A stretch of 64,000 nt of DNA from a phage. Positions 6,383 to 21,642 of this stretch are shown here, piece after piece. The notes under the pieces were generated by a model. The model was not told the origin of the DNA. It did no database searches and saw nothing but the letters and a program-made list of their open reading frames with translations. The stretch's first letter is position 1; the number at the start of each line of letters is the position of its first letter. The translations under genes were made by a program, and so were the position numbers. The DNA lies in the NCBI GenBank assembly GCA_024683775.1, contig GCA_024683775.1_4106.1. One strand, given 5' to 3'.

Positions 6383-6384
6383 AA

Positions 6385-7738: not shown

Positions 7739-7759
7739 TATTATAGCCCACTGGTTAAC

Positions 7760-7767
7760 GCTGGTGG
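7760..7767 (+). other. Chi octamer GCTGGTGG
   Basis: Exact match inside the hairpin after CDS 7595. Confidence 0.8.
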
Positions 7768-7837
7768 GCTATAATCATTTACCCTATACAATGCCAGTAC
7801 TCAACCGTTTATCTCGTTAGAATGCGTTACAGGACGT

Positions 7838-8041: not shown

Positions 8042-8268
8042 TCTATTGACAATATCCTCCAGTACTGGCATAATACTTACATCAAGACGAGAACGTCACT
8101 AACCCATAGGGTGCACAAATGTAACTATATAATATCGATCAATAAATGATCAAAAAGTACTGGATCAATTTAGCATAAGGCGTATAATTCTGATCAATTC
8201 TTGATCAAAGGCAATATACGCAGTTGAATTTATATAGACAGTACAAAGGCGTTACTATCCGTGGTAAT

Positions 8269-8276
8269 GCTGGTGG
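8269..8276 (+). other. Chi octamer GCTGGTGG
   Basis: Exact match read in sequence. Confidence 0.8.
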
Positions 8277-8369
8277 ATATGTAGTATCATATGGTTTGAA
8301 TAAGATAAACACTAGTAGTATTATTGTAGCATTACAGTACTATAGTATTTTTATAATGAGGTTAAAATA

Positions 8370-8627
8370 ATGGCAGTAGGATACGCGAAAGACGGGGCCG
8401 AACAAGACGAGATTCACGCAGTGATTCAGGCAGCCGTTAACCACGCTAGAAAGCAAATTAACGCACAAAGAGAATCACTGGTACATTGCCTCGACTGCGG
8501 CGATAAAATCCCTGAGAATCGACGCCAGGCCGTTATAGGGTGCATGTATTGTATTACTTGCCAGGAGGATCATGATAGTACTTTTAAAAGAGATCCGCGT
8601 AATTGTTGGCATAGATCTATGAGATAA
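8370..8627 (+). CDS. TraR/DksA-family C4 zinc-finger protein (85 aa)
   Basis: CxxC-17-CxxC spacing (CLDCG...CMYCITC) near the C-terminus as in TraR/DksA proteins; SD TGAGG upstream. Confidence 0.7.
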   Translation: MAVGYAKDGAEQDEIHAVIQAAVNHARKQINAQRESLVHCLDCGDKIPENRRQAVIGCMYCITCQEDHDSTFKRDPRNCWHRSMR

Positions 8628-8690
8628 AAAGTATTGACAGTACTGAAAGATAGTGTATAATGTTTTATATCTTAACTGAGGATAGTAATC

Positions 8691-9047
8691 ATGGGAATAC
8701 AACATATCACGCGTACTACTGACAATGGCGAGATCACTGGTTATCAGGTACAGGGCAAAGTAGCACAATTGCAGTACTGGTTTGTTAAACGTGGAATCAT
8801 TGCACCGGATCTTGATTATGACCGTGTAGCGTTTATTGATTCTCTTTATGTTGATCCTGATAGTCGGGGCAATGGTGAAGGTAACGAATTAATGAATGCC
8901 TTTATTGATGCCGCCGATGATTCAGATTGTATCATCTTAGAATGCGATACGGGAGAAGATAACGCCTTTAATCTTAAAGAATGGTACGAAGGTTTCGGAT
9001 TCGAGGTACTGATCGATAGTGAATATCCTATCATGATTTTATCATAG
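8691..9047 (+). CDS. GNAT-family N-acetyltransferase-like protein (118 aa)
   Basis: Motif LYVDPDSRGNGEGNELMNAFI resembles the GNAT acetyl-CoA binding motif A; promoter and SD upstream. Confidence 0.6.
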   Translation: MGIQHITRTTDNGEITGYQVQGKVAQLQYWFVKRGIIAPDLDYDRVAFIDSLYVDPDSRGNGEGNELMNAFIDAADDSDCIILECDTGEDNAFNLKEWYEGFGFEVLIDSEYPIMILS

Positions 9048-9125
9048 TACTTGCATTTAGTTTTCAGTACTGTTATAGTACTTGCATCAAGGGGAAACAT
9101 CTTCCCCTACTAAGAGGAAATAAAA

Positions 9126-9314
9126 ATGGAAAACTTATCAAGTATTTTAGTACAAGATGATTTCGGTAATCCTGGAAGTGCTATCATTGTTCGGGGCAAT
9201 AAAGCAACGTTTGTTATTGCTGGTGGACCCGTACAGCGTAGCATTAAAAATAATGCTGTTACCATTAATAATGTACGCTATCGCTTAGATAAAGAATTAA
9301 TTCATAAACTGTAA
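9126..9314 (+). CDS. hypothetical protein (62 aa)
   Basis: ORF; hairpin GGGGAAACATCTTCCCC and SD AAGAGGAAA upstream; contains a Chi octamer. Confidence 0.65.
   Translation: MENLSSILVQDDFGNPGSAIIVRGNKATFVIAGGPVQRSIKNNAVTINNVRYRLDKELIHKL
9219..9226 (+). other. Chi octamer GCTGGTGG
   Basis: Exact match read in sequence. Confidence 0.8.
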
Positions 9315-9399
9315 AAAAGTACTGGACAATAGATTATAGTACTGTATAATAGTTTACATGAAGGGGAGAAATGATTCTCCCCACTAAGAGGAAAGAAAA

Positions 9400-9612
9400 A
9401 TGCAAGGTCAACTAATCGTTCGTAAATGGTCTGATACTAACGAAAAACCGTGGGATGTACAATACATCGCCCCAAATGGTGAATCCAGATATCAACCAGG
9501 TGTAACGCATAGTACTGAGCAATTCGCCGCCGCTCATCGCGAACGTCTGTTACAATCAATGCAGCACGGTTCCGGTGAAAAATTCATTCAGGATCATTGG
9601 CTGAAAGATTAA
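9400..9612 (+). CDS. hypothetical protein (70 aa)
   Basis: ORF; promoter, hairpin GGGGAGAAATGATTCTCCCC and SD upstream. Confidence 0.7.
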   Translation: MQGQLIVRKWSDTNEKPWDVQYIAPNGESRYQPGVTHSTEQFAAAHRERLLQSMQHGSGEKFIQDHWLKD

Positions 9613-9698
9613 AAAGTACTTGCACAGTACTGAATAAAGTGTATAATGTTTTATATCGGAAGGGGAATAGTTCCCCTCCTAACAAAGAGGAAAGTATA

Positions 9699-9872
9699 AT
9701 GGTCCAGGTAGAATTAACAGTACTGAAAGATCTGTTTTATCGGATTGGTACTACTGGCGAATATCCGAAGGGTGATAATGCAAAACTTTACGTATCACTC
9801 GACTTATGGCAACGCGAACAATTAGCAACGGCCTGGCGTAAAGGCAAAGCAGATAGCGAGGTGAAAGCATGA
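9699..9872 (+). CDS. hypothetical protein (57 aa)
   Basis: ORF; promoter, hairpin and SD AAGAGGAAA upstream; trimmed from track ORF 9597. Confidence 0.6.
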   Translation: MVQVELTVLKDLFYRIGTTGEYPKGDNAKLYVSLDLWQREQLATAWRKGKADSEVKA

Positions 9873-10018
9873 AAGAATTCTTATTTGAAGTAGTGTTTCA
9901 AGGTGTCGGTAATAACCAACTGATTCGATCAAGTGGTTATAATGTTAACCAGGCATGGAATAACATTAAACAAATGTACCCGAACGCTATCACATATCGC
10001 AACCCGAAAGAAGTTTAA
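9869..10018 (+). CDS. hypothetical protein (49 aa)
   Basis: ORF not in track; ATGA overlap with previous stop. Confidence 0.45.
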   Translation: MKEFLFEVVFQGVGNNQLIRSSGYNVNQAWNNIKQMYPNAITYRNPKEV

Positions 10019-10024
10019 AAATAA

Positions 10025-10112
10025 TTGAAAAAGGGATTGACTCCGGTCAGTCCCTTTGCTATTATATACGCATAGAAACAAATTAGCCCACCGGGTGCAT
10101 AAATGTATCTAT
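10025..10112. repeat. composite intergenic repeat, copy 2
   Basis: Terminator hairpin AAAGGGATTGAC-TCCG-GTCAGTCCCTTT overlapping TTGACT-17-TATTAT, then conserved box CCCACCGGGTGCATAAATGTATCT. Confidence 0.7.
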
Positions 10113-10117
10113 TGTTT

Positions 10118-10125
10118 GCTGGTGG
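10118..10125 (+). other. Chi octamer GCTGGTGG
   Basis: Exact match just downstream of repeat copy 2. Confidence 0.8.
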
Positions 10126-10166
10126 CTAGTACTATCAAGTACTGAAAACTATTTTTAAAAAAGTAC

Positions 10167-10194
10167 TTGCAAAGTATCACGATAAGCGTATAAT
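10167..10194 (+). promoter_or_regulatory. sigma70-like promoter (TTGCAA-16-TATAAT)
   Basis: Hexamers read directly; upstream promoter of a duplicated double-promoter leader. Confidence 0.6.
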
Positions 10195-10282
10195 GTTTTA
10201 CATCAGGACGGGGAACGAAATAAGTAACCCCGTTAAGTAGTCCAGGAGTAAGACATACGAAAAACTCCCCTGATAAAATAGT

Positions 10283-10310
10283 TTGACAATAGAAAGTAAA
10301 CGAGTATAAT
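10283..10310 (+). promoter_or_regulatory. sigma70-like promoter (TTGACA-16-TATAAT)
   Basis: Consensus hexamers; about 30 nt upstream of CDS 10344. Confidence 0.65.
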
Positions 10311-10343
10311 ACTTACATCAACCACTGATAAGGAAACATTAAA

Positions 10344-10619
10344 ATGCGGACTTTACTTACAGCTAACGAAATCGAGCAAGTACTGACTACTAATCTGGAA
10401 CAATGGAAACGTGAAGCAGATATCCAGGCGGTTCAATGCCTTAACGATAAGTTAACGCCAGATGACTTAAGCACGATTGTTGATCCACAATTTTATGAAG
10501 ATATTCACGACACGTCTTTAAGCGTCGAGGATGTACTTGATAAGCACTACATTGATACTGATTTACATGTTTACGGTCGTAAAAACTTTATCACTATTCA
10601 CGACATTTACAATACTTAA
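10344..10619 (+). CDS. hypothetical acidic protein (91 aa)
   Basis: ORF; double-promoter leader and SD AAGGAA upstream. Confidence 0.7.
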   Translation: MRTLLTANEIEQVLTTNLEQWKREADIQAVQCLNDKLTPDDLSTIVDPQFYEDIHDTSLSVEDVLDKHYIDTDLHVYGRKNFITIHDIYNT

Positions 10620-10707
10620 GTATTGACAAAGTATCTTAGTACTGTATAATAGTTTACATCAAGTGAGGGGAAACGGTTCCCCTCCTAACAAAGAGAGAGA
10701 AATTAAA

Positions 10708-10890
10708 ATGGCTAAGTGCACTATCTGTAAGAAAGAAATCGTATTAGTTCCAAGTGCCCGTGAACGTGCCGCTCGGTTCGGTGGCAAAGCGTCAGACTAT
10801 ACAAAAATGTTTACTGCCCATGCAGCTTGTCAAGTAGCAAAACGTTCACAAGAAAGCGTAGAATTAATGCGTAAACTTTCCAAAAAATAA
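10708..10890 (+). CDS. hypothetical protein (60 aa, CxxC plus HxxC)
   Basis: ORF; promoter, hairpin and SD upstream; trimmed from track ORF 10663. Confidence 0.65.
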   Translation: MAKCTICKKEIVLVPSARERAARFGGKASDYTKMFTAHAACQVAKRSQESVELMRKLSKK

Positions 10891-10977
10891 GTATTGACAA
10901 AGTATCTTAGTACTGTATAATAGTTTACATCAAGCGAGGGGAATGGTTCCCCTCCTAACAAAGAGAGAGAAATAAAA

Positions 10978-11301
10978 ATGGCTATGATCCTTACCCAGAA
11001 AGTAGAACTGAAAATTGTAACCTCCTTTGACATTAAAGTTAATCGGTGGACTGATAGCCACGGCAATACTTACCACTCCTGCTACGTGTCCGCATTGATT
11101 GGTGATCGCTGGGAAGACCTGGGACACGAAACCTTTACATACGGTTACGGCACACAAGGTGAGTACACGGGTTTAGAAATCATTAAGGAAACTGTAATAG
11201 GTTTCAACCCGAAAGAGAAAGTACTACACAGAATTGAGAAAGAGATCAACAAAGAAATTACAGTTCGCTACTACGATGTAAAACGTAAGAAAGACATGTA
11301 A
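10978..11301 (+). CDS. hypothetical protein (107 aa), paralog of CDS 4490
   Basis: ORF; upstream cassette almost identical to that of CDS 10708; shares motifs with CDS 4490. Confidence 0.7.
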   Translation: MAMILTQKVELKIVTSFDIKVNRWTDSHGNTYHSCYVSALIGDRWEDLGHETFTYGYGTQGEYTGLEIIKETVIGFNPKEKVLHRIEKEINKEITVRYYDVKRKKDM

Positions 11302-11400
11302 TAGAATCCATTTAAAGTACTATTTGACATTGCCCAGATAGTACTTTATAATAGACTCTAACTTGTAGTACTAATTAACTTAACTAATAGGATGTACACC

Positions 11401-11796
11401 ATGATTACTAAATTCTTCGCTACCCGTGAACAAGCTCGCATCGTTGCCCGTGAGGAAGGTGAAACATTTAAAGACATGGGTAAAGATTCTCCTACTGGTA
11501 AACGCTGGGCGGTACAGTTCAAAGAGATCTCTGATATTGTGAATTCACCTGAGCCTGTACTTACAGCAGCAGAACTAAAGCAAGCTCAAGAACTGGCTGA
11601 AGTACTGAACGCTCAAGATGACTTCTTGAAAGGTTCTGATATTGAAGTTACAGTTAACGCAAATGCATGGACTCACGCGGATCACCTGGCAAACCTTAAG
11701 CGTCCAAGTGAACTGATTCGCAACCAGAAAGAGATCCGACACGACCGTAAGGGTAATCGTGTAACAGTATACAGTAAACGCCGCCAGGTTATCTAA
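11401..11796 (+). CDS. hypothetical protein (131 aa)
   Basis: ORF; promoter TTGACA...TATAAT upstream; start chosen at second ATG after AGGA. Confidence 0.65.
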   Translation: MITKFFATREQARIVAREEGETFKDMGKDSPTGKRWAVQFKEISDIVNSPEPVLTAAELKQAQELAEVLNAQDDFLKGSDIEVTVNANAWTHADHLANLKRPSELIRNQKEIRHDRKGNRVTVYSKRRQVI

Positions 11797-11818
11797 TAAC
11801 TTGCAGTACTAACAACAC

Positions 11819-11843
11819 GGCGGGATCAGTTCCCGCCTTTTTT
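11819..11843 (+). terminator. rho-independent terminator
   Basis: Hairpin GGCGGGA-TCAG-TTCCCGCC followed by TTTTTT. Confidence 0.75.
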
Positions 11844-11857
11844 ATAGGACAAACAAA

Positions 11858-12112
11858 ATGATTAAGGTTCAACTATATAAAGATAACATCTTACGGGTAC
11901 ACTATAAAGCACCTCAGAGAATCATCACAAAGGCCGTACAGCTTGCTAATGAGTTTATTAATGGTAACCTATTACCTAGGAAGTTAAGCAACGGGAAACT
12001 GCGTGTAATCGACGTGGACACTAACAACAGGATAGTAATCGAGAACACAGGAAAGATAAACCTTTATGAGCATCAACAATACAATAAGAAAATAAAACTA
12101 ATATCACGTTGA
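11858..12112 (+). CDS. hypothetical protein (84 aa)
   Basis: ORF; SD-like sequence upstream. Confidence 0.6.
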   Translation: MIKVQLYKDNILRVHYKAPQRIITKAVQLANEFINGNLLPRKLSNGKLRVIDVDTNNRIVIENTGKINLYEHQQYNKKIKLISR

Positions 12113-12165
12113 CAGTACTCAATTGTTTTAGTACTATGTACACATACCAACACGGGAGAAACAAA

Positions 12166-12384
12166 ATGAAATTATCTAAAATCGAAAAGAAAACTATTGA
12201 TGAAGCAGTTAAGCACGGTTATACCTTTCGTAATGATTCACATTTTACCAATTTTCAACAAGGGTATCGTACTATTAAAAAACTAATTGACAAAGGTTTA
12301 TTAGTTGAAGTCAATAACGGTAACGGTATCGAGTATCAACCAACACAAGACGCATTTTATTTTAAGAAATATAATATTATCTAA
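12166..12384 (+). CDS. hypothetical protein (72 aa)
   Basis: ORF; promoter and SD GGGAGAAA upstream; trimmed from track ORF 12109. Confidence 0.65.
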   Translation: MKLSKIEKKTIDEAVKHGYTFRNDSHFTNFQQGYRTIKKLIDKGLLVEVNNGNGIEYQPTQDAFYFKKYNII

Positions 12385-12442
12385 TTGACAGTACTCAATT
12401 GTTTTAGTATTATGTACACATACCAACACGGGGGGAAACAAA

Positions 12443-12685
12443 ATGATTACTTTAGAAAAACGTATCAAAGAAACTACATCGCTGGTGGAACTGTTAACAG
12501 TACTCAAATGTAAAACAACACCATTCAGCACGCCGGACTTTATTAATATGGTTGATGTTAATGGTCGCTATCGTATCACGGTCGAACAAGGAGCGGCGAA
12601 AGTATTCAGTACTAAAAACACTAAGGAAGTGATCCACGCCGTTAATGTTAAAAAAGTAGTTGCCATTGATAGTAAAGTACTGTAA
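12443..12685 (+). CDS. hypothetical protein (80 aa)
   Basis: ORF; upstream about 60 bp is a near-identical copy of the region upstream of CDS 12166. Confidence 0.65.
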   Translation: MITLEKRIKETTSLVELLTVLKCKTTPFSTPDFINMVDVNGRYRITVEQGAAKVFSTKNTKEVIHAVNVKKVVAIDSKVL

Positions 12686-12716
12686 TATAGTTTCATTAAC
12701 TCAAGGAGAACATGCA

Positions 12717-13301
12717 ATGCGTAAATATACTAAATTCATCCGTACACTGTCAGAAATGGAAACCAACAAAGAGATCCTTTCAGCTTGTCGGTTAGCTGGC
12801 CTGGAGATCATCGGTGCTGGTTCTTCCCGTATAGTATTCGCTTTAAATGATCGGTTAGTGATTAAGGTCGCGAATTGTGATGCGGGTGTCGAACAAAATG
12901 AAACTGAATGTAAGGTATGGAATTTTTTAGACTATGACCGCCCTCAGTTGAAACAGTACTTTGCAAAGGTGCATATGCATTTATGCGATCCTGATAATAT
13001 GTTTATCGTTATGGATCGGTTGAGTACTGCAAGCAAAGGCAGTGTGAAGCACGTAAACGCGTGCAATGAATTAAAGTACAATATTAAACGTAATGCAATC
13101 GAACGCCAGCACCGCTTTGCTGATGCACTACAACACGTTGATGATACATTATCAACACTAACGATAAGAGATATCAGAAAACAGAATATCGGCCAGGATC
13201 GTAATGGACTTATTAAAGTACTTGATTACGGTTTAACCAGCAATATCTGGAATCAGTACTATAAAAAGCGTGATGTGGCAGCAAGTAAGGTAACACGATA
13301 A
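12717..13301 (+). CDS. protein-kinase-like protein (194 aa)
   Basis: Gly-rich loop IGAGSSRIVF, VIKVA lysine, catalytic-loop-like RDIRKQNIG and DFG-like VLDYG in the expected order; SD AAGGAGAA upstream; trimmed from TTG-start track ORF 12660. Confidence 0.6.
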   Translation: MRKYTKFIRTLSEMETNKEILSACRLAGLEIIGAGSSRIVFALNDRLVIKVANCDAGVEQNETECKVWNFLDYDRPQLKQYFAKVHMHLCDPDNMFIVMDRLSTASKGSVKHVNACNELKYNIKRNAIERQHRFADALQHVDDTLSTLTIRDIRKQNIGQDRNGLIKVLDYGLTSNIWNQYYKKRDVAASKVTR

Positions 13302-13309
13302 AAAAGATT

Positions 13310-13400
13310 AAAAAAGGGATTGACTCCGGTCAGTCCCTTTGCTATTATATATCCATTGAGAGATAACTCACTGACCCATAGGGTGCGGAAGTGTATCTAT
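13310..13400. repeat. composite intergenic repeat, copy 3
   Basis: Terminator hairpin overlapping TTGACT-17-TATTAT, then box CCCATAGGGTGCGGAAGTGTATCT. Confidence 0.7.
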
Positions 13401-13525
13401 TATATAAGTATTCAGTACTGAAAACTATTTGATAAAAAGTACTTGCAAACTATCTCAATGAGCGTATAATGTTTTATATCGAGAGGGGGAAATGGTTCTC
13501 CCTGGTACTAAAAGGAATCAAGACG

Positions 13526-13747
13526 ATGACTACTATGACCTGCGTTCACGCTTCAAATCTTCTGAATGATGCAGCATTTAAAGCAGGTGAAGAATATCAA
13601 TGCTATCGGGATGAAAATAAAAAAGTTTTCGTCGTTGATGCTAACGGTTTCCATATTGAATTGCAATCCGGCTTCACTGGTTTAAATGGTAAATCAGTAT
13701 GGGGCGTTAATGATGATAATGGTCTTTATCACTTTATCCGTAATTAA
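13526..13747 (+). CDS. hypothetical protein (73 aa)
   Basis: ORF; promoter, hairpin and SD AAAGGAA upstream; trimmed from track ORF 13469. Confidence 0.65.
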   Translation: MTTMTCVHASNLLNDAAFKAGEEYQCYRDENKKVFVVDANGFHIELQSGFTGLNGKSVWGVNDDNGLYHFIRN

Positions 13748-13831
13748 GTATTTGACAAAGTATATCAGTACTGTATAATAGTTTACATCAAGGGGAGAAT
13801 AGTTCTCCCCGATACTAAAAGGAATAAAATC

Positions 13832-14239
13832 ATGACTACTACCAATCAAGCTCGGAACATCACCAACGATAAAAATCATGCTGCAATGGTCGCTGGATAC
13901 ATTGAAGCTATGCAATTCAGTACTGTATACAATGAGAACGGCGATTACCTGGAAGATTATGAATTATCAGAGCAAGCCCATCAAGCGGCAGTGATTGCAT
14001 GTTCACGTTTCCTTGCTGTACATGGTGAAGATATGGAAACAGTACAAAAACACCATAATCCTGATTATACTTATAGTCATGCAGGTCATGATCTCTTTCT
14101 TACTCGCGAAGGTCACGGCACTGGTTTTTGGGATCGTGGTTTAGGTCACTATGGCGATGTATTCACGAAGTACTGCGAAGAAATCAACGTTTGCGATCCC
14201 TATGTAGGCGATGATAACTTAATCTATATGGGCGAATAA
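13832..14239 (+). CDS. hypothetical protein (135 aa)
   Basis: ORF; promoter TTGACA...TATAAT, hairpin GGGGAGAATAGTTCTCCCC, SD upstream. Confidence 0.7.
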   Translation: MTTTNQARNITNDKNHAAMVAGYIEAMQFSTVYNENGDYLEDYELSEQAHQAAVIACSRFLAVHGEDMETVQKHHNPDYTYSHAGHDLFLTREGHGTGFWDRGLGHYGDVFTKYCEEINVCDPYVGDDNLIYMGE

Positions 14240-14328
14240 AAGTATTTGACAAAGTATATCAGTACTGTATAATAGTTTACATCAAGGGGAGAATAGTTCT
14301 CCCCACACCAATAAAAGGAAACAAAATT

Positions 14329-14601
14329 ATGTCCAGCTACTCCGCTACTATGATCATTAAAGATATGAACGGTAATCCTACTTCTGCTGGTGGATCATTT
14401 GGAAATATTAACTTAGATGGGCGGTTATCCATGCAATCAGCCATCGATGCAGCGAAAGAAGTTTTTAAGAATGAATGTACTGTTAGTAAGCTGGATTATA
14501 TGGGTTTCGCTATCGAGAAAACTACTCGTTTTGTGAACTACAAAAATCCACTGATGATTGATACTAACCTGAAAGCTAACGAAGTGGGGTACTTATTATG
14601 A
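14329..14601 (+). CDS. hypothetical protein (90 aa)
   Basis: ORF; upstream cassette duplicates the one upstream of CDS 13832; contains a Chi octamer. Confidence 0.7.
   Translation: MSSYSATMIIKDMNGNPTSAGGSFGNINLDGRLSMQSAIDAAKEVFKNECTVSKLDYMGFAIEKTTRFVNYKNPLMIDTNLKANEVGYLL
14385..14392 (+). other. Chi octamer GCTGGTGG
   Basis: Exact match read in sequence. Confidence 0.8.
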
Positions 14602-14789
14602 CAGTAGAAGAAGTAAAAAAAGTACTGGCAGTACTACGATATCATAATCATTGCAAGGTGAAGAATGATCCTGATTATCTTGATTCATCCCTGGAGGAAG
14701 ACACCTTGAACGCTATAAGCCATATGCAGACATTAGCAAAGCGTATGACTGAAAAGAACATGCCGGACTATATCGGAAATAAAATTTAA
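14598..14789 (+). CDS. hypothetical protein (63 aa)
   Basis: ORF; ATGA overlap with previous stop. Confidence 0.6.
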   Translation: MTVEEVKKVLAVLRYHNHCKVKNDPDYLDSSLEEDTLNAISHMQTLAKRMTEKNMPDYIGNKI

Positions 14790-14876
14790 AAAGTACTTGC
14801 ATTGTAGTTAGATTAACGTATAATGTTTTATATCGAGAGGGGGAAATGGTTTCCCCTCAAGTCCAGGAGATACACC

Positions 14877-15140
14877 ATGAACACTATCGAAATCACTATC
14901 AATGCACACGTATACGACAACGTAGTACTGCAAACTACTATGACCGCCAATGATACCAGTACTTTGCGGAATACTGTTATTAGTGCCGTATGTGCCGCTA
15001 TCGGTGATGTCGCCCTGGAAAATGCAAAACACGTAAACGATGGTTTCACTATGTGCAAACGTGATAACGCAAAACATATCATCGTGGAAGGTTACGGCGG
15101 TGTAGAATTTAATGTTTATATGAAAAAAGTACTTGCATAA
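14877..15140 (+). CDS. hypothetical protein (87 aa)
   Basis: ORF; promoter, hairpin, SD CAGGAGA upstream; trimmed from track ORF 14823. Confidence 0.7.
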   Translation: MNTIEITINAHVYDNVVLQTTMTANDTSTLRNTVISAVCAAIGDVALENAKHVNDGFTMCKRDNAKHIIVEGYGGVEFNVYMKKVLA

Positions 15141-15207
15141 TAACTAAAACAAAGTATAATGTTTTGCATAGGGGGAGATATCCTCCCCCACTAAAAGGAG
15201 TAATAAA

Positions 15208-15432
15208 ATGGCTAACTTTGATGAACTGATGCGGGAAGTAGCTAACCTGGCAGAAGAGAAGAAATCATTCGATTCTATCTATAACACCGCTCACCGTGAT
15301 TCAGTACTGGCATGTAACCAGGATCAAAAAGATGAACTAATCGCCACCTATCATGAAGCATGGAAGTACTACCGACAATGGGAGAAAGAAGAAAGTGAGT
15401 CTACCATTGACGGCCTCAATAATCTAATCTAA
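15208..15432 (+). CDS. hypothetical protein (74 aa)
   Basis: ORF; promoter, hairpin GGGGGAGATATCCTCCCCC and SD upstream. Confidence 0.7.
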   Translation: MANFDELMREVANLAEEKKSFDSIYNTAHRDSVLACNQDQKDELIATYHEAWKYYRQWEKEESESTIDGLNNLI

Positions 15433-15508
15433 AAGTTTTATTTCAGTACTATTGACATAGCTTGATAGTACTGATGTAATAACTTTACTAACTACAAGGG
15501 GAAACATA

Positions 15509-15766
15509 ATGGATCAGTTCACACAATATCGGGTAAATCCTCAAGCTATGGCCTACGTAGAAGACCATAAAACGTTACCAGTACTGCAACCAGTTAAAGG
15601 CCATATCTATCGTGCAATGTCGTGGTGTACGGCCCAGGATGGCTATAAAACCGTAGCCGTGGGTATGTATTGCGGTGATGGTGAATGGTTTGATCCAAAT
15701 AATCCGGTATCCATTGACAGTACTGAAAAAATGAAATGGGCCGACTACATCGAAGATATTTCATAA
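15509..15766 (+). CDS. hypothetical protein (85 aa)
   Basis: ORF; type-III promoter and SD upstream. Confidence 0.65.
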   Translation: MDQFTQYRVNPQAMAYVEDHKTLPVLQPVKGHIYRAMSWCTAQDGYKTVAVGMYCGDGEWFDPNNPVSIDSTEKMKWADYIEDIS

Positions 15767-15856
15767 AAACTATTTGACAGTACTAACCAGTAATGTATAA
15801 TGTTTTACATAGAGCGGGGGAATAGTTCTCCCGCCAATAGTTTGGAGTAAAACATT

Positions 15857-16057
15857 ATGTCTATCGCTATCGCCCTGGTTGAAGTACTGAAAGAAGCTAA
15901 AGCCAACCAGATCGACGTAAAGATCCAGGAACTACAAAACGGCTTAATCGGCTGTACTTGTACCGCTGGTGGAGCGGCAGACTATCGAGAACACGAATCA
16001 CTCGAATCACTGGTTCGGTATCTTACCATGATCGTTGATGATTGGAGAATCATCTAA
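15857..16057 (+). CDS. hypothetical protein (66 aa)
   Basis: ORF; promoter, hairpin and SD upstream; contains a Chi octamer. Confidence 0.65.
   Translation: MSIAIALVEVLKEAKANQIDVKIQELQNGLIGCTCTAGGAADYREHESLESLVRYLTMIVDDWRII
15965..15972 (+). other. Chi octamer GCTGGTGG
   Basis: Exact match read in sequence. Confidence 0.8.
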
Positions 16058-16081
16058 CAAAAAAGAATAAAAAAAGGGATT

Positions 16082-16154
16082 GACTCCGGTCAGTCCTTTT
16101 GCTATTATATACGCATAGACAAAAACTAGCCCACAGGGTGCATAGGTGTATCCA
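16082..16154. repeat. composite intergenic repeat, copy 4
   Basis: Terminator hairpin overlapping TTGACT-17-TATTAT, then box CCCACAGGGTGCATAGGTGTATCC. Confidence 0.7.
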
Positions 16155-16187
16155 AAATATATAGTTAATAACGGTGAGTAACTATCT

Positions 16188-16195
16188 GCTGGTGG
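16188..16195 (+). other. Chi octamer GCTGGTGG
   Basis: Exact match just downstream of repeat copy 4. Confidence 0.8.
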
Positions 16196-16302
16196 AACTA
16201 AAACTATTAATAAAAAAGTATTGACAAAGTATATCAGTACTGCAATAATGTATCTCGTAGGGCGGCAATGGTGCGACGGCCCACAAAGTTAGGAGATTCA
16301 AA

Positions 16303-16638
16303 ATGACTACTTCAATCGCTATCGTTAAAGCTTTCATCCGTACTAATGTTTCCTCTGTATTCATCGACGGCCTCGACCGTAACGTAGAATACTCAATCAT
16401 TATCGCACAAACGGCAAACGGTTCTCGGTACATCCTGAATGATAGTGAAGCAAATCACTACTACTTCACTAAAGCCACTGGCTTTAAACGCATCGATGCT
16501 GATGTAGTATACGCTAAGATGAATAAGCTGGTAGACAAGATTAACGCGAAAGGTACTATCGATTTACAGTACTGGACCGAAACCGATCCAGAGTATGGAT
16601 CTCACCGCTACCTGAATCCAGGTATTAAAATGAAATAG
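16303..16638 (+). CDS. hypothetical protein (111 aa)
   Basis: ORF; promoter TTGACA...(C)AATAAT and SD TAGGAGA upstream. Confidence 0.7.
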   Translation: MTTSIAIVKAFIRTNVSSVFIDGLDRNVEYSIIIAQTANGSRYILNDSEANHYYFTKATGFKRIDADVVYAKMNKLVDKINAKGTIDLQYWTETDPEYGSHRYLNPGIKMK

Positions 16639-16723
16639 TACTTGCATAGTACTTAGATTCATGTATAATGTTTTACATAGAGAGGGGGAAATGGTTCTCC
16701 CTCCTAAATTAAGGAGTTTTATC

Positions 16724-17125
16724 ATGACCTTCTCAATCACTTCCTTCGCTGACGTTTTAGTACTGGCCCGGACTTTTGGTAAAGCTGGCCTTGAACACGC
16801 TGTAAGTAATGGTCATATGCACCCTGAATATTGCCGCATCATTGGAAGCTGCAAACGTTGGGCAGTGTCCCGTAATATTGAGATTGAAAACTTCAATGAC
16901 GGCAACAACGAATATACAGTTGATGCAGTATTCGAAGCCGTTGATCTCGGCGGTATCTATAACACTAACCTGAATGATGTGCGTATCGTTCGCACGGGGT
17001 TCGGTGCTTATGATGTATCTATCCGTGAAGCTATGGACAAGGGATACATTAGCAAGGACCAGTTAGCTTACATCATGCAGCAAACTAAGGAGCGTAATGA
17101 AGCACGTACTATCTTAGGGCTGTAA
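16724..17125 (+). CDS. hypothetical protein (133 aa)
   Basis: ORF; promoter, hairpin and SD TAAGGAG upstream; trimmed from track ORF 16661. Confidence 0.7.
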   Translation: MTFSITSFADVLVLARTFGKAGLEHAVSNGHMHPEYCRIIGSCKRWAVSRNIEIENFNDGNNEYTVDAVFEAVDLGGIYNTNLNDVRIVRTGFGAYDVSIREAMDKGYISKDQLAYIMQQTKERNEARTILGL

Positions 17126-17193
17126 GCAATACACATCACCAAACATCATAGGCCGCTCTCTAGCGGCCTTAACTATATCAGGAGTACATACAC

Positions 17194-17403
17194 ATGATCT
17201 ATACAGTATATAGCGTTCTAGGCACTATTGCAGGCGTACATGATAACGTCGATGGTGCTATGCGTACAGTACTGCAACAGGTTCCACTAAAGCCTAAGAC
17301 CATTAAGCAGATGACAGCACGACTAACCAGGGCGACGGCTGGCGTGGAAGTATGGCAGGACTATGGGGATACACAGATAATCGTAAGCGTAACGAAGGAT
17401 TAA
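17194..17403 (+). CDS. hypothetical protein (69 aa)
   Basis: ORF; hairpin AGGCCGCT-CTCT-AGCGGCCT then SD CAGGAG upstream. Confidence 0.65.
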   Translation: MIYTVYSVLGTIAGVHDNVDGAMRTVLQQVPLKPKTIKQMTARLTRATAGVEVWQDYGDTQIIVSVTKD

Positions 17404-17594
17404 TGCGTAAAAGGATTTAGTACTGAATCATAAAAAAGTCAAGGCATTTTTAAACTTCAGCGTTAAAAAAATGCATAGGTAATCCCTTGACTTTTATGAA
17501 TAAAAAGGGATTGGACTATGGCAAAATGCGTAGGGGGCTAAAGGGCGGGTAACCTTAGCGACTTCGATAAAGGGGTATTACTTATAAAATGTTA

Positions 17595-17622
17595 TTGACT
17601 TTTTATATGAATCGTATATTAT
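17595..17622 (+). promoter_or_regulatory. candidate promoter of the family A operon (TTGACT ... TATTAT)
   Basis: Only sigma70-like hexamer pair between the zone-1 end and the first family A gene. Confidence 0.5.
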
Positions 17623-17652
17623 TGGATTGATATTATTTTTAATGGAGTCCCT

Positions 17653-17850
17653 ATGCGTATTTTAACTCAAGAAGAGCACAACCACACACTCATATCCAAC
17701 ATGGCATATATCCTACATATGTCACATATCCGTGGTATTGCATATAAGCGTGAATTGGTTATGAAACTTTTCATAGGAACTAACTATCAAGAAAAGTATA
17801 TCGAACTATACTTACAAGAATTACGAAGGGACATAAAAGGTAGACTATGA
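17653..17850 (+). CDS. family A small protein (65 aa)
   Basis: ORF; SD AATGGAG upstream; C-terminal motif GTNYQEKYIELYL. Confidence 0.7.
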   Translation: MRILTQEEHNHTLISNMAYILHMSHIRGIAYKRELVMKLFIGTNYQEKYIELYLQELRRDIKGRL

Positions 17851-18047
17851 AAATGCGTATTTTAAATAAAGAAGATTATCAAGAACTGTTACGTAAAAAC
17901 ATGGTAAAGATTTATAACACAGACACAAACTTAGAACGAATTGAGTTATACCTTTTGATTACATTGGGAACAAGCTATCAGGGAAGATGGGTGATTCAAT
18001 ATATGGATGCATTGAAAAATGAAATATTATCCACGAGGAAACAATGA
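17847..18047 (+). CDS. family A small protein (66 aa)
   Basis: Family A motif LGTSYQ; ATGA overlap with neighbour. Confidence 0.7.
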   Translation: MKMRILNKEDYQELLRKNMVKIYNTDTNLERIELYLLITLGTSYQGRWVIQYMDALKNEILSTRKQ

Positions 18048-18253
18048 AAACTATAACACGAACCCAATCATACGGTCTTATCTTGAGATACATGGACTTA
18101 ATGTTGGATATCAGAAAAGACCTTCCTAAAACTGCAATTGAAGTTGCAAGAGCAGAGATCCGCATGTTGGCTGTACTGAACACAAACCATCAGGAAGAGT
18201 ATGTTGACGATTGGATTCGATTTTTAATAGAAGATATTAAGAGGAAACTATGA
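18044..18253 (+). CDS. family A small protein (69 aa)
   Basis: Family A motif LNTNHQEEY; ATGA overlap. Confidence 0.7.
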   Translation: MKTITRTQSYGLILRYMDLMLDIRKDLPKTAIEVARAEIRMLAVLNTNHQEEYVDDWIRFLIEDIKRKL

Positions 18254-18462
18254 TTTTTTTAACACCAGAAGAATATAAGATACGTTTTGTTTCTGTCCAG
18301 AATAAAATCTTAATTATATACAATTCAAATGCAGACCTTAACTTATCAAGGGTATTAGAAAAAGATTTACTTATGGGTGCATTTTTGGATACAGACTTTC
18401 AGGTGTATTATGTAGGGGAATACTTAATTGCACTCCAGAATTACATTAAGAGTAAACTATGA
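18250..18462 (+). CDS. family A small protein (70 aa)
   Basis: Family A motif LDTDFQ; ATGA overlap. Confidence 0.7.
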   Translation: MIFLTPEEYKIRFVSVQNKILIIYNSNADLNLSRVLEKDLLMGAFLDTDFQVYYVGEYLIALQNYIKSKL

Positions 18463-18671
18463 ATAGCATTAACTCAAATCTATATACCGAACGCGTCGCT
18501 GCAAGACAACTTGAAATTCTCATAGTATATGAAGAGACTGATGATTTGAACTTAGCATTAGTATTGGAAAATGATATACTATTGGGTGCATTCCTCGGCA
18601 CAGATTATCAGGAGCACTTCTTGAATGAGTATATAATTGCACTCCAGAAATACATTAAGAGCAAACTATGA
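18459..18671 (+). CDS. family A small protein (70 aa)
   Basis: Family A motif LGTDYQEHF; ATGA overlap; close paralog of 18250. Confidence 0.7.
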   Translation: MNSINSNLYTERVAARQLEILIVYEETDDLNLALVLENDILLGAFLGTDYQEHFLNEYIIALQKYIKSKL

Positions 18672-18886
18672 AACATTTAAGTAATTCCGAGAAGAATAAA
18701 ATTATCATTGCTGCAATAAACAAATATTTTACACTTCCTCACACAGAAGGTTTATGTGTAAGGGAACACAGGATAAACACCACCGATATACGCATGATGG
18801 CTGTACTGGGGACGAACTTTCAGGAAGAGTATGTTGTTGCACACATAGTTGCCCTCACTGATCTAATAAGGGACAAATGTAAATGA
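18668..18886 (+). CDS. family A small protein (72 aa)
   Basis: Family A motif LGTNFQEEY; ATGA overlap. Confidence 0.7.
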   Translation: MKHLSNSEKNKIIIAAINKYFTLPHTEGLCVREHRINTTDIRMMAVLGTNFQEEYVVAHIVALTDLIRDKCK

Positions 18887-19140
18887 AACACTTAACACTA
18901 GATGAATATGAAACTATAGTCCGTAAACTAACCCCTATAGCAAGGATAGTCTACGATGACCCCAGCCTTACATGGAACCAAATGCGAGCTAAAGTTAATG
19001 AGCTATGGTTGCTGTACTTTATGGGGACTCAATATCAAGATAAGTTTTGCACAGAATATGTCGAACAATTAATGAATGTTATACAGGATAAACTAGATGA
19101 TTATTGGCTCACAAAACATGAAGACTTTATCAGGAGTTGA
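18883..19140 (+). CDS. family A small protein (85 aa)
   Basis: Family A motif MGTQYQDKF; ATGA overlap; C-terminal extension overlaps next gene. Confidence 0.65.
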   Translation: MKHLTLDEYETIVRKLTPIARIVYDDPSLTWNQMRAKVNELWLLYFMGTQYQDKFCTEYVEQLMNVIQDKLDDYWLTKHEDFIRS

Positions 19141-19369
19141 GTATCAAACTGCCCTATTCTCTTTAATCCATACCCTTAGAAAAAACAATGCCTTACATGG
19201 TGCACCTGAAGTGGATGTTATCAACGGTGAACTTTATCTTATGAAATTCATTGGAACAAACTATCAAGATCTGTTCATTCAACGATACTTATCAGCATTA
19301 AGAAACCAAATCCAATATAAAACCATCAAGGCCAAAAAAGAATGGAATAAACAATGCGACACAGACTAA
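19118..19369 (+). CDS. family A small protein (83 aa)
   Basis: Family A motif IGTNYQDLF; start trimmed to MKTLSGVEY. Confidence 0.65.
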   Translation: MKTLSGVEYQTALFSLIHTLRKNNALHGAPEVDVINGELYLMKFIGTNYQDLFIQRYLSALRNQIQYKTIKAKKEWNKQCDTD

Positions 19370-19605
19370 ATCACAAAATGTATTGTAAACTATTACAGAC
19401 ACTGGCACAGAAACACTATGACACGGTATCTGGAATATTACCCTATGATATCATGCGTTTACTTCACTGTGAGGCCGAGATGCTTGTACTGATGACAGGC
19501 ACTGATAAAAAAGCAATTGTCAAATCAATAGATATGTTCATCGAAGCACAATGTCAACACATTAGAACCGAGATATGGAGGCGAGAGAATGATAACCCTA
19601 AATGA
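19354..19605 (+). CDS. family A-like small protein, divergent (83 aa)
   Basis: Same size and position in the array; motif degraded to MTGTDKK. Confidence 0.6.
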   Translation: MRHRLNHKMYCKLLQTLAQKHYDTVSGILPYDIMRLLHCEAEMLVLMTGTDKKAIVKSIDMFIEAQCQHIRTEIWRRENDNPK

Positions 19606-19804
19606 GTTTCAGTATCATTGGAGATTACAAGCTATAAGAAGGAAAGTTGTTAGTATTTCTTTAGACAAGTCTATTGCACAAGAGGACAAATGTGTTATAA
19701 TAGCTGAAATGAAGTTGGGTGCTTTCGTAGGGACAAACTATCAAAACATCTACACTGACGTATTGTTAAGTGCCTTACGTAACAAGGTGATATCAAAAGA
19801 ATGA
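19589..19804 (+). CDS. family A small protein (71 aa)
   Basis: Family A motif VGTNYQNIY; overlap with neighbours. Confidence 0.7.
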   Translation: MITLNEFQYHWRLQAIRRKVVSISLDKSIAQEDKCVIIAEMKLGAFVGTNYQNIYTDVLLSALRNKVISKE

Positions 19805-20019
19805 GAAAATTACAAGGCTTTGAATACATCAGACTCCTGAAAACATGCACCAGCAGAAGGAAAATCTTATCAAGCAACAAGAGCATCCCTGCCAACCTAA
19901 AACATGCAATGATAGCTGAACTCTATGTAGAAGCACTCATAGGGACAAACTATCAACAAATGTATATAGACATGTGGGTTGATGCATTAGTCAAGGAGAT
20001 CAAAAGTAAATGCAAATGA
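19801..20019 (+). CDS. family A small protein (72 aa)
   Basis: Family A motif IGTNYQQMY; ATGA overlap. Confidence 0.7.
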   Translation: MRKLQGFEYIRLLKTCTSRRKILSSNKSIPANLKHAMIAELYVEALIGTNYQQMYIDMWVDALVKEIKSKCK

Positions 20020-20228
20020 TTAATTTAAGTAAAGATGAATATTATGATCGTCTTGCAAAAACTTATCCAGCACGTAACGCCGTTTATAATAGTAACATTA
20101 TTGAACGCTCAAAGAAGTTGATTGTAGTAAATGAGATTAAGATGCTTTCAGTCTTAGGAACAAACTATCAAGAGAATGCTGTACTGTTGTTAATTGATGC
20201 CCTCAAGAGAGAGATACAAAGTAAATGA
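20010..20228 (+). CDS. family A small protein (72 aa)
   Basis: Family A motif LGTNYQENA; overlap. Confidence 0.7.
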   Translation: MQMINLSKDEYYDRLAKTYPARNAVYNSNIIERSKKLIVVNEIKMLSVLGTNYQENAVLLLIDALKREIQSK

Positions 20229-20461
20229 TTCATTTATCTTACCATGATTATCAAAAACGTTTAAATGCATCAAGGGATATAAGGATTCAAATCTTCAATA
20301 ACAAAAAATTGAAACCTGATAACAGAAGAATCAAAATGATAGAAGCAGAGTTATGCAACTTCCTGGGGACGAACTATCAGGCAGGTAAGGTAAAAAACTA
20401 TCTTAGAGAACTAATGAATTGTATCGAAAATAAATGCGATGCTTTGGAGAATAAAAAATGA
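20225..20461 (+). CDS. family A small protein (78 aa)
   Basis: Family A motif LGTNYQAGK; ATGA overlap. Confidence 0.7.
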   Translation: MIHLSYHDYQKRLNASRDIRIQIFNNKKLKPDNRRIKMIEAELCNFLGTNYQAGKVKNYLRELMNCIENKCDALENKK

Positions 20462-20715
20462 TCAATTTAAGTAAAGATGAATATACCGAGCGTATGACAA
20501 AAATTACACACAAACGTAATACAATCTATCACAACCAAAAAATTCAACACAGTAAGAAAATGATTATGATGCGTGAGTTAAAGATGGGTGTATTCTTGGG
20601 AACAAACTATCAAGAGCCAGAAGTAAATCGATTAATTGATGAGTTACTATTGGAAATCAAAGGTAAGCTGTACTTTTATCAAATGACCCGTCCACTAAGG
20701 TGTACTGATCGATGA
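20458..20715 (+). CDS. family A small protein (85 aa)
   Basis: Family A motif LGTNYQEPE; ATGA overlap. Confidence 0.7.
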   Translation: MINLSKDEYTERMTKITHKRNTIYHNQKIQHSKKMIMMRELKMGVFLGTNYQEPEVNRLIDELLLEIKGKLYFYQMTRPLRCTDR

Positions 20716-20954
20716 ATATTGTGAATAACATCAGATTAGCAGAAAGATTTGATAGAATTGGGGAAGCTATGAGAAGATACGATAAAGAATATGGTCATTT
20801 AAGCTTTACGATAGAAAAGAGATATGAACTTGAAGCAGAGTTTAAAATGCAGTTCCTTTTAGGTACACAGTATCAAAACCAATATGTAGAAAAATGGATT
20901 TCACTTTTAATCCAGACAATTTACGTAAGGAACATTAAATGCAAAATGAAATGA
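20712..20954 (+). CDS. family A small protein (80 aa)
   Basis: Family A motif LGTQYQNQY; ATGA overlap. Confidence 0.7.
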   Translation: MNIVNNIRLAERFDRIGEAMRRYDKEYGHLSFTIEKRYELEAEFKMQFLLGTQYQNQYVEKWISLLIQTIYVRNIKCKMK

Positions 20955-21175
20955 TATACTTAACACATGATGAGTTAACAGAAAGACTAGATAAATCCAA
21001 AAAACTTACAAAATATCTTCCACACAACCCAAACCAAACCCCAGCAGAAAGGAGTGCAGAAGTTTTATTCCAAACATTACCATACCTTCTTGGAACTGAT
21101 AGGCAAGAGTATCATATTGAACGTATAATTAAATATCTCAAAATTACTATTATGGAAAAAGTAAATGCAAAGTGA
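20939..21175 (+). CDS. family A small protein (78 aa)
   Basis: Family A motif LGTDRQEYH; subgroup with N-terminus MQNEMIYLT. Confidence 0.7.
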   Translation: MQNEMIYLTHDELTERLDKSKKLTKYLPHNPNQTPAERSAEVLFQTLPYLLGTDRQEYHIERIIKYLKITIMEKVNAK

Positions 21176-21395
21176 AATGATATACTTAACGAATGAAGAA
21201 TTTCAAGAGAAGATGTTAAAAGCCAATAACATTACTCTTAAGTTCGTTCCAAATCAATCAATATATGAAATGTCTGCGAATGTATTGTTTCAGAAGCTAC
21301 CATACGTTCTTGGAACTGATAAACAAGAATTTATGGTTCAAAATATGATTGAACATCTTGTAATGAGTATTAAGGAAAAAGTAAATGCAAAATGA
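21165..21395 (+). CDS. family A small protein (76 aa)
   Basis: Family A motif LGTDKQEFM; close paralog of 20939. Confidence 0.7.
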   Translation: MQSEMIYLTNEEFQEKMLKANNITLKFVPNQSIYEMSANVLFQKLPYVLGTDKQEFMVQNMIEHLVMSIKEKVNAK

Positions 21396-21642
21396 AATGA
21401 AATACTTAACAGACGATGAGTTAAAAGAACGATTAATTAAATCCAGAAAACTTACAAATCAACTTCCAAACGACACAAACAAGTCACCTGCCGAAAGGAG
21501 TGCAGAAGTTTTATACATTCAACTCATGTACTTTCTTGGAACTGACAGACAAGAGTATTACATTGAAAGTATGCTTCGATATCTTAAATTCTCTATAAAG
21601 GAAAAGATACATGCTCAAGAATTTAAAAATCCTAACAGTTAA
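21385..21642 (+). CDS. family A small protein (85 aa)
   Basis: Family A motif LGTDRQEYY; close paralog of 20939. Confidence 0.7.
   Translation: MQNEMKYLTDDELKERLIKSRKLTNQLPNDTNKSPAERSAEVLYIQLMYFLGTDRQEYYIESMLRYLKFSIKEKIHAQEFKNPNS

Follow-up and report, generated by a model that had tools for sequence, protein, structure and literature searches.

A palindrome-bearing segment with conserved boxes at the inner edge of the terminal repeat of an Asteriusvirus jumbo phage

Phages with direct terminal repeats (DTRs) of the T7, T5, and SPO1 types have fixed chromosome ends with an exact repeat at both, and site-specific terminases cut their concatemers at both repeat boundaries; the repeats carry early genes transcribed by the host polymerase, and conserved non-coding DNA lies beside the cut. 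The same layout is found at the locus described here, a 249-bp non-coding intergenic segment (17404-17652) that contains a long imperfect palindrome, designated H1. The window, i.e., the whole stretch of 64,000 nucleotides that was analysed (NCBI GenBank assembly GCA_024683775.1, contig GCA_024683775.1_4106.1), stems from an Asteriusvirus jumbo coliphage of the 121Q/PBECO4 group; coordinates refer to it unless a phage is named. The locus differs from the T7, T5, and SPO1 types in that the repeat measures ~21 kb in a genome of ~375 kb, and in having a TTGACTTTT box at 69 nt, a GGACTATG box at 35 nt, and a CT^TAGC cut (the caret marks the cut), all specific to this group of Rak2-like jumbo phages. 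As a whole, the segment is best explained as a module that acts in cis in end formation or packaging and contains a hairpin that probably doubles as a terminator of early transcription in the DTR, an account that we favour as reasonably probable. The palindrome, the position of the end, and conservation across genera with fixed spacing are shown.

Other packaging sites offer partial parallels. The cosB site of phage lambda has several short boxes, some of them inverted, and an A/T-tract spacer, all within ~120 bp beside the cut on the side that is packaged. The boxes described here likewise lie on the packaged side, as in cosB and pac sites, but 17300-17750 lacks the IHF consensus WATCAANNNNTTR, and the cut is deposited as a flush boundary rather than a 12-nt stagger. 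At the T7 concatemer junction, a class II pause site and a proposed hairpin intermediate are tied to processing. At both loci, a palindrome and an element that pauses or stops transcription, putative in the present case, lie beside the concatemer cut; unlike at the T7 junction, the polymerase here is the host sigma-70 enzyme, and the sequences share no similarity. A terminator at the T7 junction has been mentioned (bioRxiv 10.64898/2026.02.12.705533). The closest parallel is Repeat Region 3 of T5, which extends across the inner end of the left repeat and is believed to contain the injection stop signal, for which paired DnaA boxes within inverted repeats have been proposed (bioRxiv 10.1101/866236). 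Both regions are untranslated, rich in palindromes or repeats, conserved above the neighbouring genes, and placed across the inner repeat boundary; the present segment is 249 bp long, as against 1.2-1.6 kb in T5, and a scan of 17300-17750 found no DnaA, IHF, Fis-like, or Chi site. The T4 gp17 terminase family is best known for headful packaging, which is normally independent of sequence. Rak2-like phages encode a large terminase of this type together with a truncated paralogue (PMC5259590), and for this reason their exact ends are of some interest.

The position of the end is fixed by close relatives, 37 phage records of which match 17100-17900 (best match, 99%). The annotated "Direct Terminal Repeats 1..21525" of vB_Ec-M-J has its last base aligned with window position 17555, and the linear records of vB_Ec-M-J, fEgEco12, and G17, which come from different depositors, all stop at this base; the gene-to-end offset in WPEC5 equals that in G17. 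The records end in …GGGGGCTAAAGGGCGGGTAACCT-3' (…GGGCGGGTAACCT), 152 nt past the stop codon of a 69-aa gene. Read-based boundaries have been obtained by others. For fEgEco12, which is 100% identical to the window over 17380-17660, a DTR of 20,993 bp was determined with PhageTerm and confirmed by restriction digests (PMC13070987); read coverage indicated a terminal redundancy of ~20 kb in G17 (PMC6563267); and PhageTerm was also applied to the Klebsiella phages fENko-Kae01 (hereafter Kae01) and Muenster. In fEgEco12 and vB_Ec-M-J, the sequence left of the boundary recurs at the opposite end of the chromosome and that to the right does not: the left copy runs on into TAGCGAC… and a gene array (array A), and the right copy stops at …AACCT. 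In fEgEco12, the repeat start was mapped to position 353741, and position 1 of the window is fEgEco12 position 3284. GC content falls across the boundary from ~0.41 to 0.31-0.33. The junction 17555^17556 is almost certainly the terminal-repeat boundary. Because the mapped ends of relatives coincide with 17555, the early region that the initial annotation had called zone 1 is the ~21-kb DTR, and the palindrome lies ~60 bases inside its physical right end. The "recombination junction" suggested there was right as to a boundary, namely the inner edge of the DTR, but strictly this is a terminase cut or end-forming site. Mosaic changes among relatives cluster at this junction.

On the packaged side of this cut, short boxes are held at fixed distances in several genera. 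The TTGACTTTT box starts 68-70 nt from the end in six lineages, namely the window, 121Q, Kae01 (70 nt), the Erwinia phages Hallingskeid and Kaldavass, and Serratia phage BF, and its columns are invariant in a nine-sequence alignment covering four genus-level groups. The GATTGGACTATG box is identical, and keeps the same 35-nt spacing, in Asteriusvirus (including its divergent members JNE01 and Turkey5) and in Kae01; in Asteriusvirus, Kae01, Kaldavass, and Hallingskeid alike, the distance between the last base of the GGACTATG/CTATG box and the end is exactly 35 nt, and Kaldavass and Hallingskeid carry TTGACT at 69 nt from the end in addition to CTATG-N35. Within the terminal 30 bp, TAAAGGnCnGGTAAnnCT is common to Asteriusvirus and Hallingskeid. 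Over the terminal 80 nt, the window and three other phages show 63-69% identity in a near gap-free alignment that none of 500 shuffles matched; the stretch from the stop codon to TTGACTTTT varies from 75 to 96 nt, and the 5' side of H1 is rich in insertions and deletions. Right ends established independently in three other genera agree with this cut, reading …TGCCT^TAGCC in Kae01 (PhageTerm, 19,736-bp repeat) and …AGGCT^TAGCA in Muenster (PhageTerm, 20,030 bp). The records of Kaldavass and Hallingskeid both end in …GTAATGCT (…GCT), and in Serratia BF …GTAATGCT TAGCA occurs as internal sequence, no end having been determined.

Conserved boxes at a fixed distance on the packaged side of a cut have the look of a cis-acting end-forming or packaging signal, and we lean slightly toward the view that they act in end formation or packaging. 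A literature search found no description of the end module, its fixed spacings, or a CT^TAGC cut shared across genera, and the words promoter and palindrome are both absent from the fEgEco12 paper (PMC13070987). The repeat and its coordinates in near-identical phages were already known; the conserved module appears to be new.

Under the favoured account, the packaging enzyme would cut replicating concatemers between 17555 and 17556 and so generate the virion chromosome's right end. The ~125 bp inside the cut (17428-17555) would form the end module, comprising the hairpin with its TTGACTTTT 3' arm, the GATTGGACTATG box, and the terminal TAAAGGGCGGGTAACCT; the boxes, on the packaged side as in pac and cosB, would position the cut or mark the end for packaging. 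The repeat has many strong sigma-70 promoters, and in early transcripts that run rightward from them the palindrome would form an RNA hairpin with a U-run behind it. Early transcription may thereby be halted or attenuated 60 nt short of the DNA end, which in the left repeat copy would be ahead of the gene array that starts at 17595 under its own promoter.

The palindrome itself (Table 1) agrees with the initial annotation, which had quoted its sequence at around 17436-17504: nested imperfect inverted repeats span 17428-17499, a G-rich stretch follows on the 3' side (GTAGGGGGCTAAAGGGCGGG, 17530-17549), and the placement between the last zone-1 gene and the family A promoter is borne out by the list of open reading frames (ORFs) and a promoter scan. 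Fold prediction and comparison with related phages, both proposed there as checks, also came out in its favour, the palindrome being conserved in most Asteriusvirus genomes and the segment folding far better than dinucleotide-preserving shuffles as DNA and as RNA. For the 91-nt segment 17420-17510, the DNA fold has -15.2 kcal/mol (z = -5.15; 0/200 shuffles as good), and the RNA folds have -21.2 kcal/mol (z = -3.64) on the + strand and -19.7 (z = -3.56) on the - strand. Inverted repeats of at least 14 nt with arms no more than 60 nt apart number only 19 in the window, and several of the others of H1's size are members of a promoter family. An alternative hairpin, H2, uses the same CCCTT segment as the 3' arm of H1, and the two are therefore mutually exclusive. 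An Rfam search of the region returned only a chance-level match to snoR74 (23.1 bits against a threshold of 44, E = 0.75). An apparent direct repeat (AAAATGCrTAGG…GGTAAyCC…TTrrC) was also seen between 17468-17516 and 17523-17581.

Table 1. Features of the end segment, the repeat boundaries, and the terminal repeat (window coordinates)
Feature	Coordinates	Strand	Description
Last terminal-repeat gene	17194..17403	+	69 aa; ORF list; phrog_17833 match, E = 5.8e-36
GATTTAGTACTGAATC	17414..17429	.	inverted repeat; imperfect copy of the dispersed TCAGTACTGA palindrome family
Hairpin H1	17428-17499	+	nested imperfect palindrome; inverted-repeat search and folding
H1 peripheral arms	17428-17435 / 17492-17499		TCATAAAA / TTTTATGA, 8/8 paired
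H1 base extension in fold	17428-17431 / 17496-17499		
H1 outer arms	17434-17448 / 17481-17495		15 nt, 93% complementary
H1 clean core of outer arms (outer stem)	17434-17444 / 17485-17495		AAAAGTCAAGG / CCTTGACTTTT
H1 inner arms	17444-17451 / 17467-17474		GCATTTTT / AAAAATGC, 8/8 paired
H1 inner stem in fold	17445-17451 / 17467-17473		
H1 loop	17452-17466		15 nt
H1 unpaired 3'-side bulge	17475-17484		10 nt, ATAGGTAATC
Alternative hairpin H2	17481-17488 / 17505-17512	+	AATCCCTT / AAGGGATT, 16-nt loop; inverted repeat
TTGACTTTT box	17487..17495	+	H1 3' arm and U-run; starts 69 nt from chromosome end
GATTGGACTATG box	17509..17520	+	last base exactly 35 nt from cut
Terminal 30 bp of virion DNA	17526..17555	+	ATGCGTAGGGGGCTAAAGGGCGGGTAACCT; the G-rich stretch of the initial annotation
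Cut site CT^TAGC	17554..17559, between 17555 and 17556	.	repeat/unique boundary; …GGGTAACCT^TAGCGAC…
Sigma-70-type promoter	17595-17622	+	TTGACT-16-TATTAT, 10/12 consensus positions; opens unique region, precedes array A
First array A gene	17653..17850	+	65 aa, paralogous family; phrog_4148 match
Left boundary, read from outside into the repeat			fEgEco12/window CACTA^AGT; Muenster CACTA^AGT; Kae01 CGCTA^TAT
Right boundary (reverse complement), read from outside into the repeat			fEgEco12/window CGCTA^AGG; Muenster TGCTA^AGC; Kae01 GGCTA^AGG
Perfect sigma-70 promoters	198, 6950, 7523, 8634, 10283, 10623, 10894, 11324, 13752, 14246, 15774	+	
Chi sites	3786, 7760, 8269, 9219, 10118, 12481, 14386, 15965, 16188	+	
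Chi site	3724	-	

Read as RNA, H1 shares with Rho-independent terminators, including bidirectional ones, a position after a stop codon, flanking A- and U-runs, and changes that preserve pairing. It begins ~25 nt past the stop codon at 17403, and its tail is UUUUAUGA (UUUUAU), or UUUUUUGA (UUUUUU) in the 121Q type. Kae01, Hallingskeid, Kaldavass, and Serratia BF also have nested hairpins at this site, with 5' partner arms that shift and inner stems that differ; RNA-fold z-scores are -3.6 for the window, -3.35 for the 121Q type, -1.95 for Kae01, -5.84 for Hallingskeid, -3.51 for Kaldavass, -2.36 for Serratia BF, 0.24 for Muenster, and -0.35 for JNE01. Between the window and Kae01, one inner pair is changed on both sides, from G:C to U:A (alignment columns 29 and 59). 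Such cross-genus pairs were inspected by hand rather than formally counted, because the 5' arms do not fall in homologous alignment columns. Within Asteriusvirus, all three stem substitutions (C17445T in vB_Ec-M-J, A17446G in the 121Q type, and U17431-A17496 to G-U) yield G-U pairs on the + strand and A-C mismatches in RNA of the opposite strand, a pattern that weakly favours a role at the RNA level. It is because of this pattern, the distance from the stop codon, and the U-run after the stem that H1 was read as a terminator or attenuator of early transcription; we rate such termination at close to even chances, a little on the doubtful side. As to the bidirectional terminator of the initial annotation, the terminator is plausible on the same grounds, but it is non-canonical and uncalled, and bidirectional action is not required because all neighbouring genes lie on the + strand.

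The same observations would suit another explanation, in which H1 is a plain intrinsic terminator of the last early operon, the repeat boundary lies nearby by chance, and the boxes have no role at the end. The post-stop hairpin with its U-run and the three G-U-compatible substitutions speak for it, as do the hairpins ending in UUGACUUUU that other genera keep with shifting 5' arms, as if the fold alone were selected. However, the 3' arm is kept as sequence, 68-70 nt from the DNA end, in four genus-level groups, and the stretch between arm and end is essentially free of insertions and deletions though most of its bases diverge, a pattern that a terminator alone leaves unexplained. Nor was H1 called by either terminator scan, and the terminators found elsewhere in the repeat are compact, rich in GC, and followed by long T-runs. 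We consider this explanation unlikely, and prefer an end-forming or packaging module with a hairpin that may also act on early transcripts.

Several observations nonetheless weigh against this preferred account. The first group concerns the hairpin as a terminator. The outer stem has G-C at 4/11 pairs, is A/U-rich, and holds ~40 nt with a nested stem between its arms, and is thus non-canonical among Rho-independent terminators, for which standard scans expect a compact, GC-rich stem and a loop of 3-8 nt. The U-run is short (four U in the window type) and able to pair with the upstream A-run. The terminator scan of the window did not call H1, and the G17 record has no terminator feature there, though ARNold predictions are annotated elsewhere in it. 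H1 folds equally well on either strand and may thus act as DNA or as RNA, and the G-U pattern comprises three events (p ~0.125). A literature search found no transcriptome for this phage group. The second group concerns the end itself: the role of the boxes is read from conservation, and for the window's own phage the end at 17555 would follow from that of identical relatives. Finally, in Turkey5 and JNE01 the palindrome is swapped for unrelated A/T-rich sequence and the TTGACTTTT box is also absent, and Muenster has a hairpin of only 6 bp (z = 0.24). The end is kept in Turkey5 and JNE01, and H1 itself is therefore not needed for end formation. These two phages retain, at the same length, AGGGATTGGACTATG (17506-17520), ATGCGTRGGGGG (17526-17537), GGGTAACC^TTAGC (17547-17559), and the promoter -35 region, and their equivalent of H2 (CCAATACCT…AGGGATTGG) is the sole palindrome remaining.

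A second alternative takes H1 as a DNA hairpin or cruciform in end processing, serving either as a snap-back primer that duplicates the repeat or as a target of the packaging nuclease. Chung, Nardone and Hinkle reportedly proposed in 1990 that a snap-back hairpin duplicates the terminal repeat at T7 concatemer maturation. A literature search for the T7 hairpin model retrieved no paper. The strongest fold statistic is indeed that of DNA (z = -5.15), the palindrome is found 60-127 bp in from the cut, within the packaged DNA, and nested palindromes occupy this place in five lineages. Against it, the stem substitutions make G-T mismatches in DNA, the same end is formed in Turkey5 and JNE01, which lack H1, and in Muenster, where it is nearly absent, and no evidence of hairpin-ended intermediates was found; the DNA-hairpin explanation is accordingly held to be quite improbable. 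Still less probable is a T5-like injection stop signal, by which a left repeat with host-takeover genes would enter first and its repeat-rich inner end would halt transfer. The long repeat of small early genes with strong host-type promoters, and the conserved palindrome-rich non-coding segment at its inner edge, do recall T5. Yet no DnaA box (TTWTNCACA, both strands) occurs in 17300-17750, the segment is 249 bp long rather than the ~1.6 kb of T5, the literature searched on this group holds no report of two-step injection, and boxes tied to their distance from the cut fit end formation better. Least credible is the operator of the initial annotation, or divergent promoter elements, in which RNA polymerase or a regulator would bind the two TTGACT motifs of the arms and control array A or the last early gene: TTGACTTTT(T)ATGA does occur three times (- strand, 17428-17442; + strand, 17487; and the genuine -35 at 17595), but a usable -10 element at 16-18 nt is missing from both arms, so that promoters in the arms were rejected, no gene runs leftward, the left arm shifts position between genera, and the 17595 promoter is retained in Turkey5 and JNE01, which lack the palindrome.

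Further variation within Asteriusvirus was seen in the alignment of 14 relatives. The centre of the G-rich stretch (8-9 nt) is freely variable. Just right of the cut, BF17 carries an insertion of ~0.6 kb with an extra 366-nt gene, PBECO4 an insertion of similar size, and Turkey5 and JNE01 a substitution. In the Salmonella SD-* records, a deletion of ~80 bp removes the 17595-type promoter; in SD-15_S21 and SD-1_S14 (equivalent of ~17570-17650), the first array gene stands directly at the repeat end and the records are 20-40 kb shorter than those of relatives, so that the promoter loss may be a real deletion or an assembly problem. The end-module version of Turkey5 (1500-1840) and JNE01 (1500-1756), AAACCAATACCTTAGCG…ATAGTTTAGGGATTGG, is a different one that resembles the AAACCAATACCTTATAC…ATAGTTTCGGACTG of Muenster, a likeness suggesting that genera have exchanged end modules. 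Another feature of Turkey5 is a tandem duplication of ~85 bp immediately 3' of the last repeat gene. Wider sequence diversity was taken from GenBank relatives: a scan of viral contigs gave at least 120 unrelated matches with a 14-mer and 121Q only with a 30-nt pattern, and a metagenome scan gave just three near-identical contigs and one spurious match.

The genes on either side are all on the + strand, and no known function was found for the products of the flanking ones. The 69-aa gene and an upstream gene of 133-154 aa keep their synteny in other genera; homologues of the latter in other Rak2-like jumbo phages typically lie ~19 kb from the record start or ~435-460 nt from the record end. Directly 3' of this upstream gene (154 aa in the window) is a perfect GC-rich hairpin, AGGCCGCT-CTCT-AGCGGCCT (17150-17169), without a T-run on the + strand; the scan calls it as a terminator on the - strand only, yet nothing is transcribed leftward there, and it may be an RNA-stabilising or processing hairpin. 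On the other side, the gene at 17653 opens a tandem array of many ~70-aa genes, and its neighbour also matches phrog_4148. The -35 element of the 17595 promoter is conserved among relatives and its -10 element varies within TAnnnT only (TATTAT or TAAAAT); a promoter-like sigma-70 site also lies just past the cut in Kae01 and Muenster. An 18-codon ORF at 17496-17552, stopping 3 nt before the chromosome end, was rejected as a gene, having no ribosome-binding site and losing its ATG in 121Q-type genomes.

The inverted repeat at 17414..17429 belongs to a family dispersed over the window. The pattern TYAGTACTGA has 22 matches over both strands, at 13 distinct sites, against 0.44 matches expected, and TCAGTACTGA-type sites lie at 50, 487, 1203, 1860, 12606, 13412, 17417, 24381, 38494, 39253, 43786, 50791, and 51287. 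Coding and non-coding DNA alike are strongly enriched in AGTACT, which is the ScaI site, and in the 10-bp palindrome TCAGTACTGA; these could be part of a promoter, a site for a protein, or a target of modification. The related AGTACTGAATCA recurs beside terminator-like hairpins at 1862 and 3665, and in three genera copies of ATTCAGTACT are found outside the repeat, 15-22 nt from its left boundary.

The repeat as a whole is an unusually dense field of early promoters. Positions 1-17555 hold 11 perfect (12/12) sigma-70 promoters (TTGACA-16/17-TATAAT), all on the + strand, and ~20 more that are near-perfect; their extended consensus is AAAAAGTACTTGCAA…(AGTACTG)TATAATGTTTTACA. A four-copy intergenic module, AAAGGGATTGACTCCGGTCAGTCCCTTTGCTATTATAT…TAGCCCACAGGGTGCATAAGTGTATCT, occurs at 6385-6412, 10030-10057, 13313-13340, and 16073-16100, each with ~90 nt downstream. 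It is a TTGACT-17-TATTAT promoter (with TG) whose -35 lies inside a palindrome with a 12-bp stem, and on the 3' side comes an untranslated leader, or possibly a small RNA, that is conserved. The AAAGGGATTGACT of the module is similar to the terminal box AAAGGGATTGGACT (17503-17516). The 17.5-kb portion of the repeat also contains nine + strand Chi sites (GCTGGTGG), all in different contexts, against 0.09 expected, and the 46-kb unique part has one per strand only. Their orientation is that recognised by RecBCD entering at the right end, the nearest being 1.37 kb from it. Kae01, Muenster, and Serratia BF have + strand Chi sites no more than ~1.8 kb upstream of the right end of the repeat, with two in the last ~1 kb of Kae01, and fEgEco12 has an inverted pair at 578/590 near its left end. 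Given the Chi sites of the repeat, an exposed DNA end is plausible.

At the opposite side of the repeat, the left end is identical in G17 and fEgEco12 (AGTAGGCAGAGG…), and the first ~1.7 kb of the latter (1-1688, outside the window) has no annotated gene and constitutes a second long non-coding end region, with repeated boxes, e.g., AGTACTCCATCCTAAATC, that are conserved in Kae01. Read from outside into the repeat, CTA^AG is shared, in inverted orientation, by 5/6 of the left and right boundaries of three genera; with this motif inverted at both boundaries, AG would be the first two bases at either 5' end of the virion DNA. Because the shared motif is short and was spotted post hoc, a common CTA^AG cut is a possible lead only. 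Extended to the whole group, the argument would make the ~125-bp module (hairpin, TTGACTTTT at 69 nt, GGACTATG at 35 nt, and CT^TAGC) the site-specific packaging and cleavage signal of all Rak2-like jumbo phages, with the T4 gp17-family terminase relying on it for exact ends and cutting CTA^AG inverted at both boundaries. We put this forward as a speculative and rather doubtful extension; if true, it would show a headful-type terminase turned site-specific, possibly via the truncated second terminase paralogue.

An unexplained palindrome thus becomes a defined landmark, marking the exact right end of a jumbo phage chromosome and the edge of its early-gene repeat, and the boxes at fixed spacing become a concrete candidate for the packaging and cleavage signal of the Rak2-like group. 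The rule …CT^TAGC, 35 nt after GGACTATG, can serve to orient and close deposited genomes, many of which are permuted or lack the repeat; in one deposited genome of the group, the repeat has been flagged as mis-assigned (PMC13070987). The region also offers a test bed for whether early transcription is insulated from the next block of genes.

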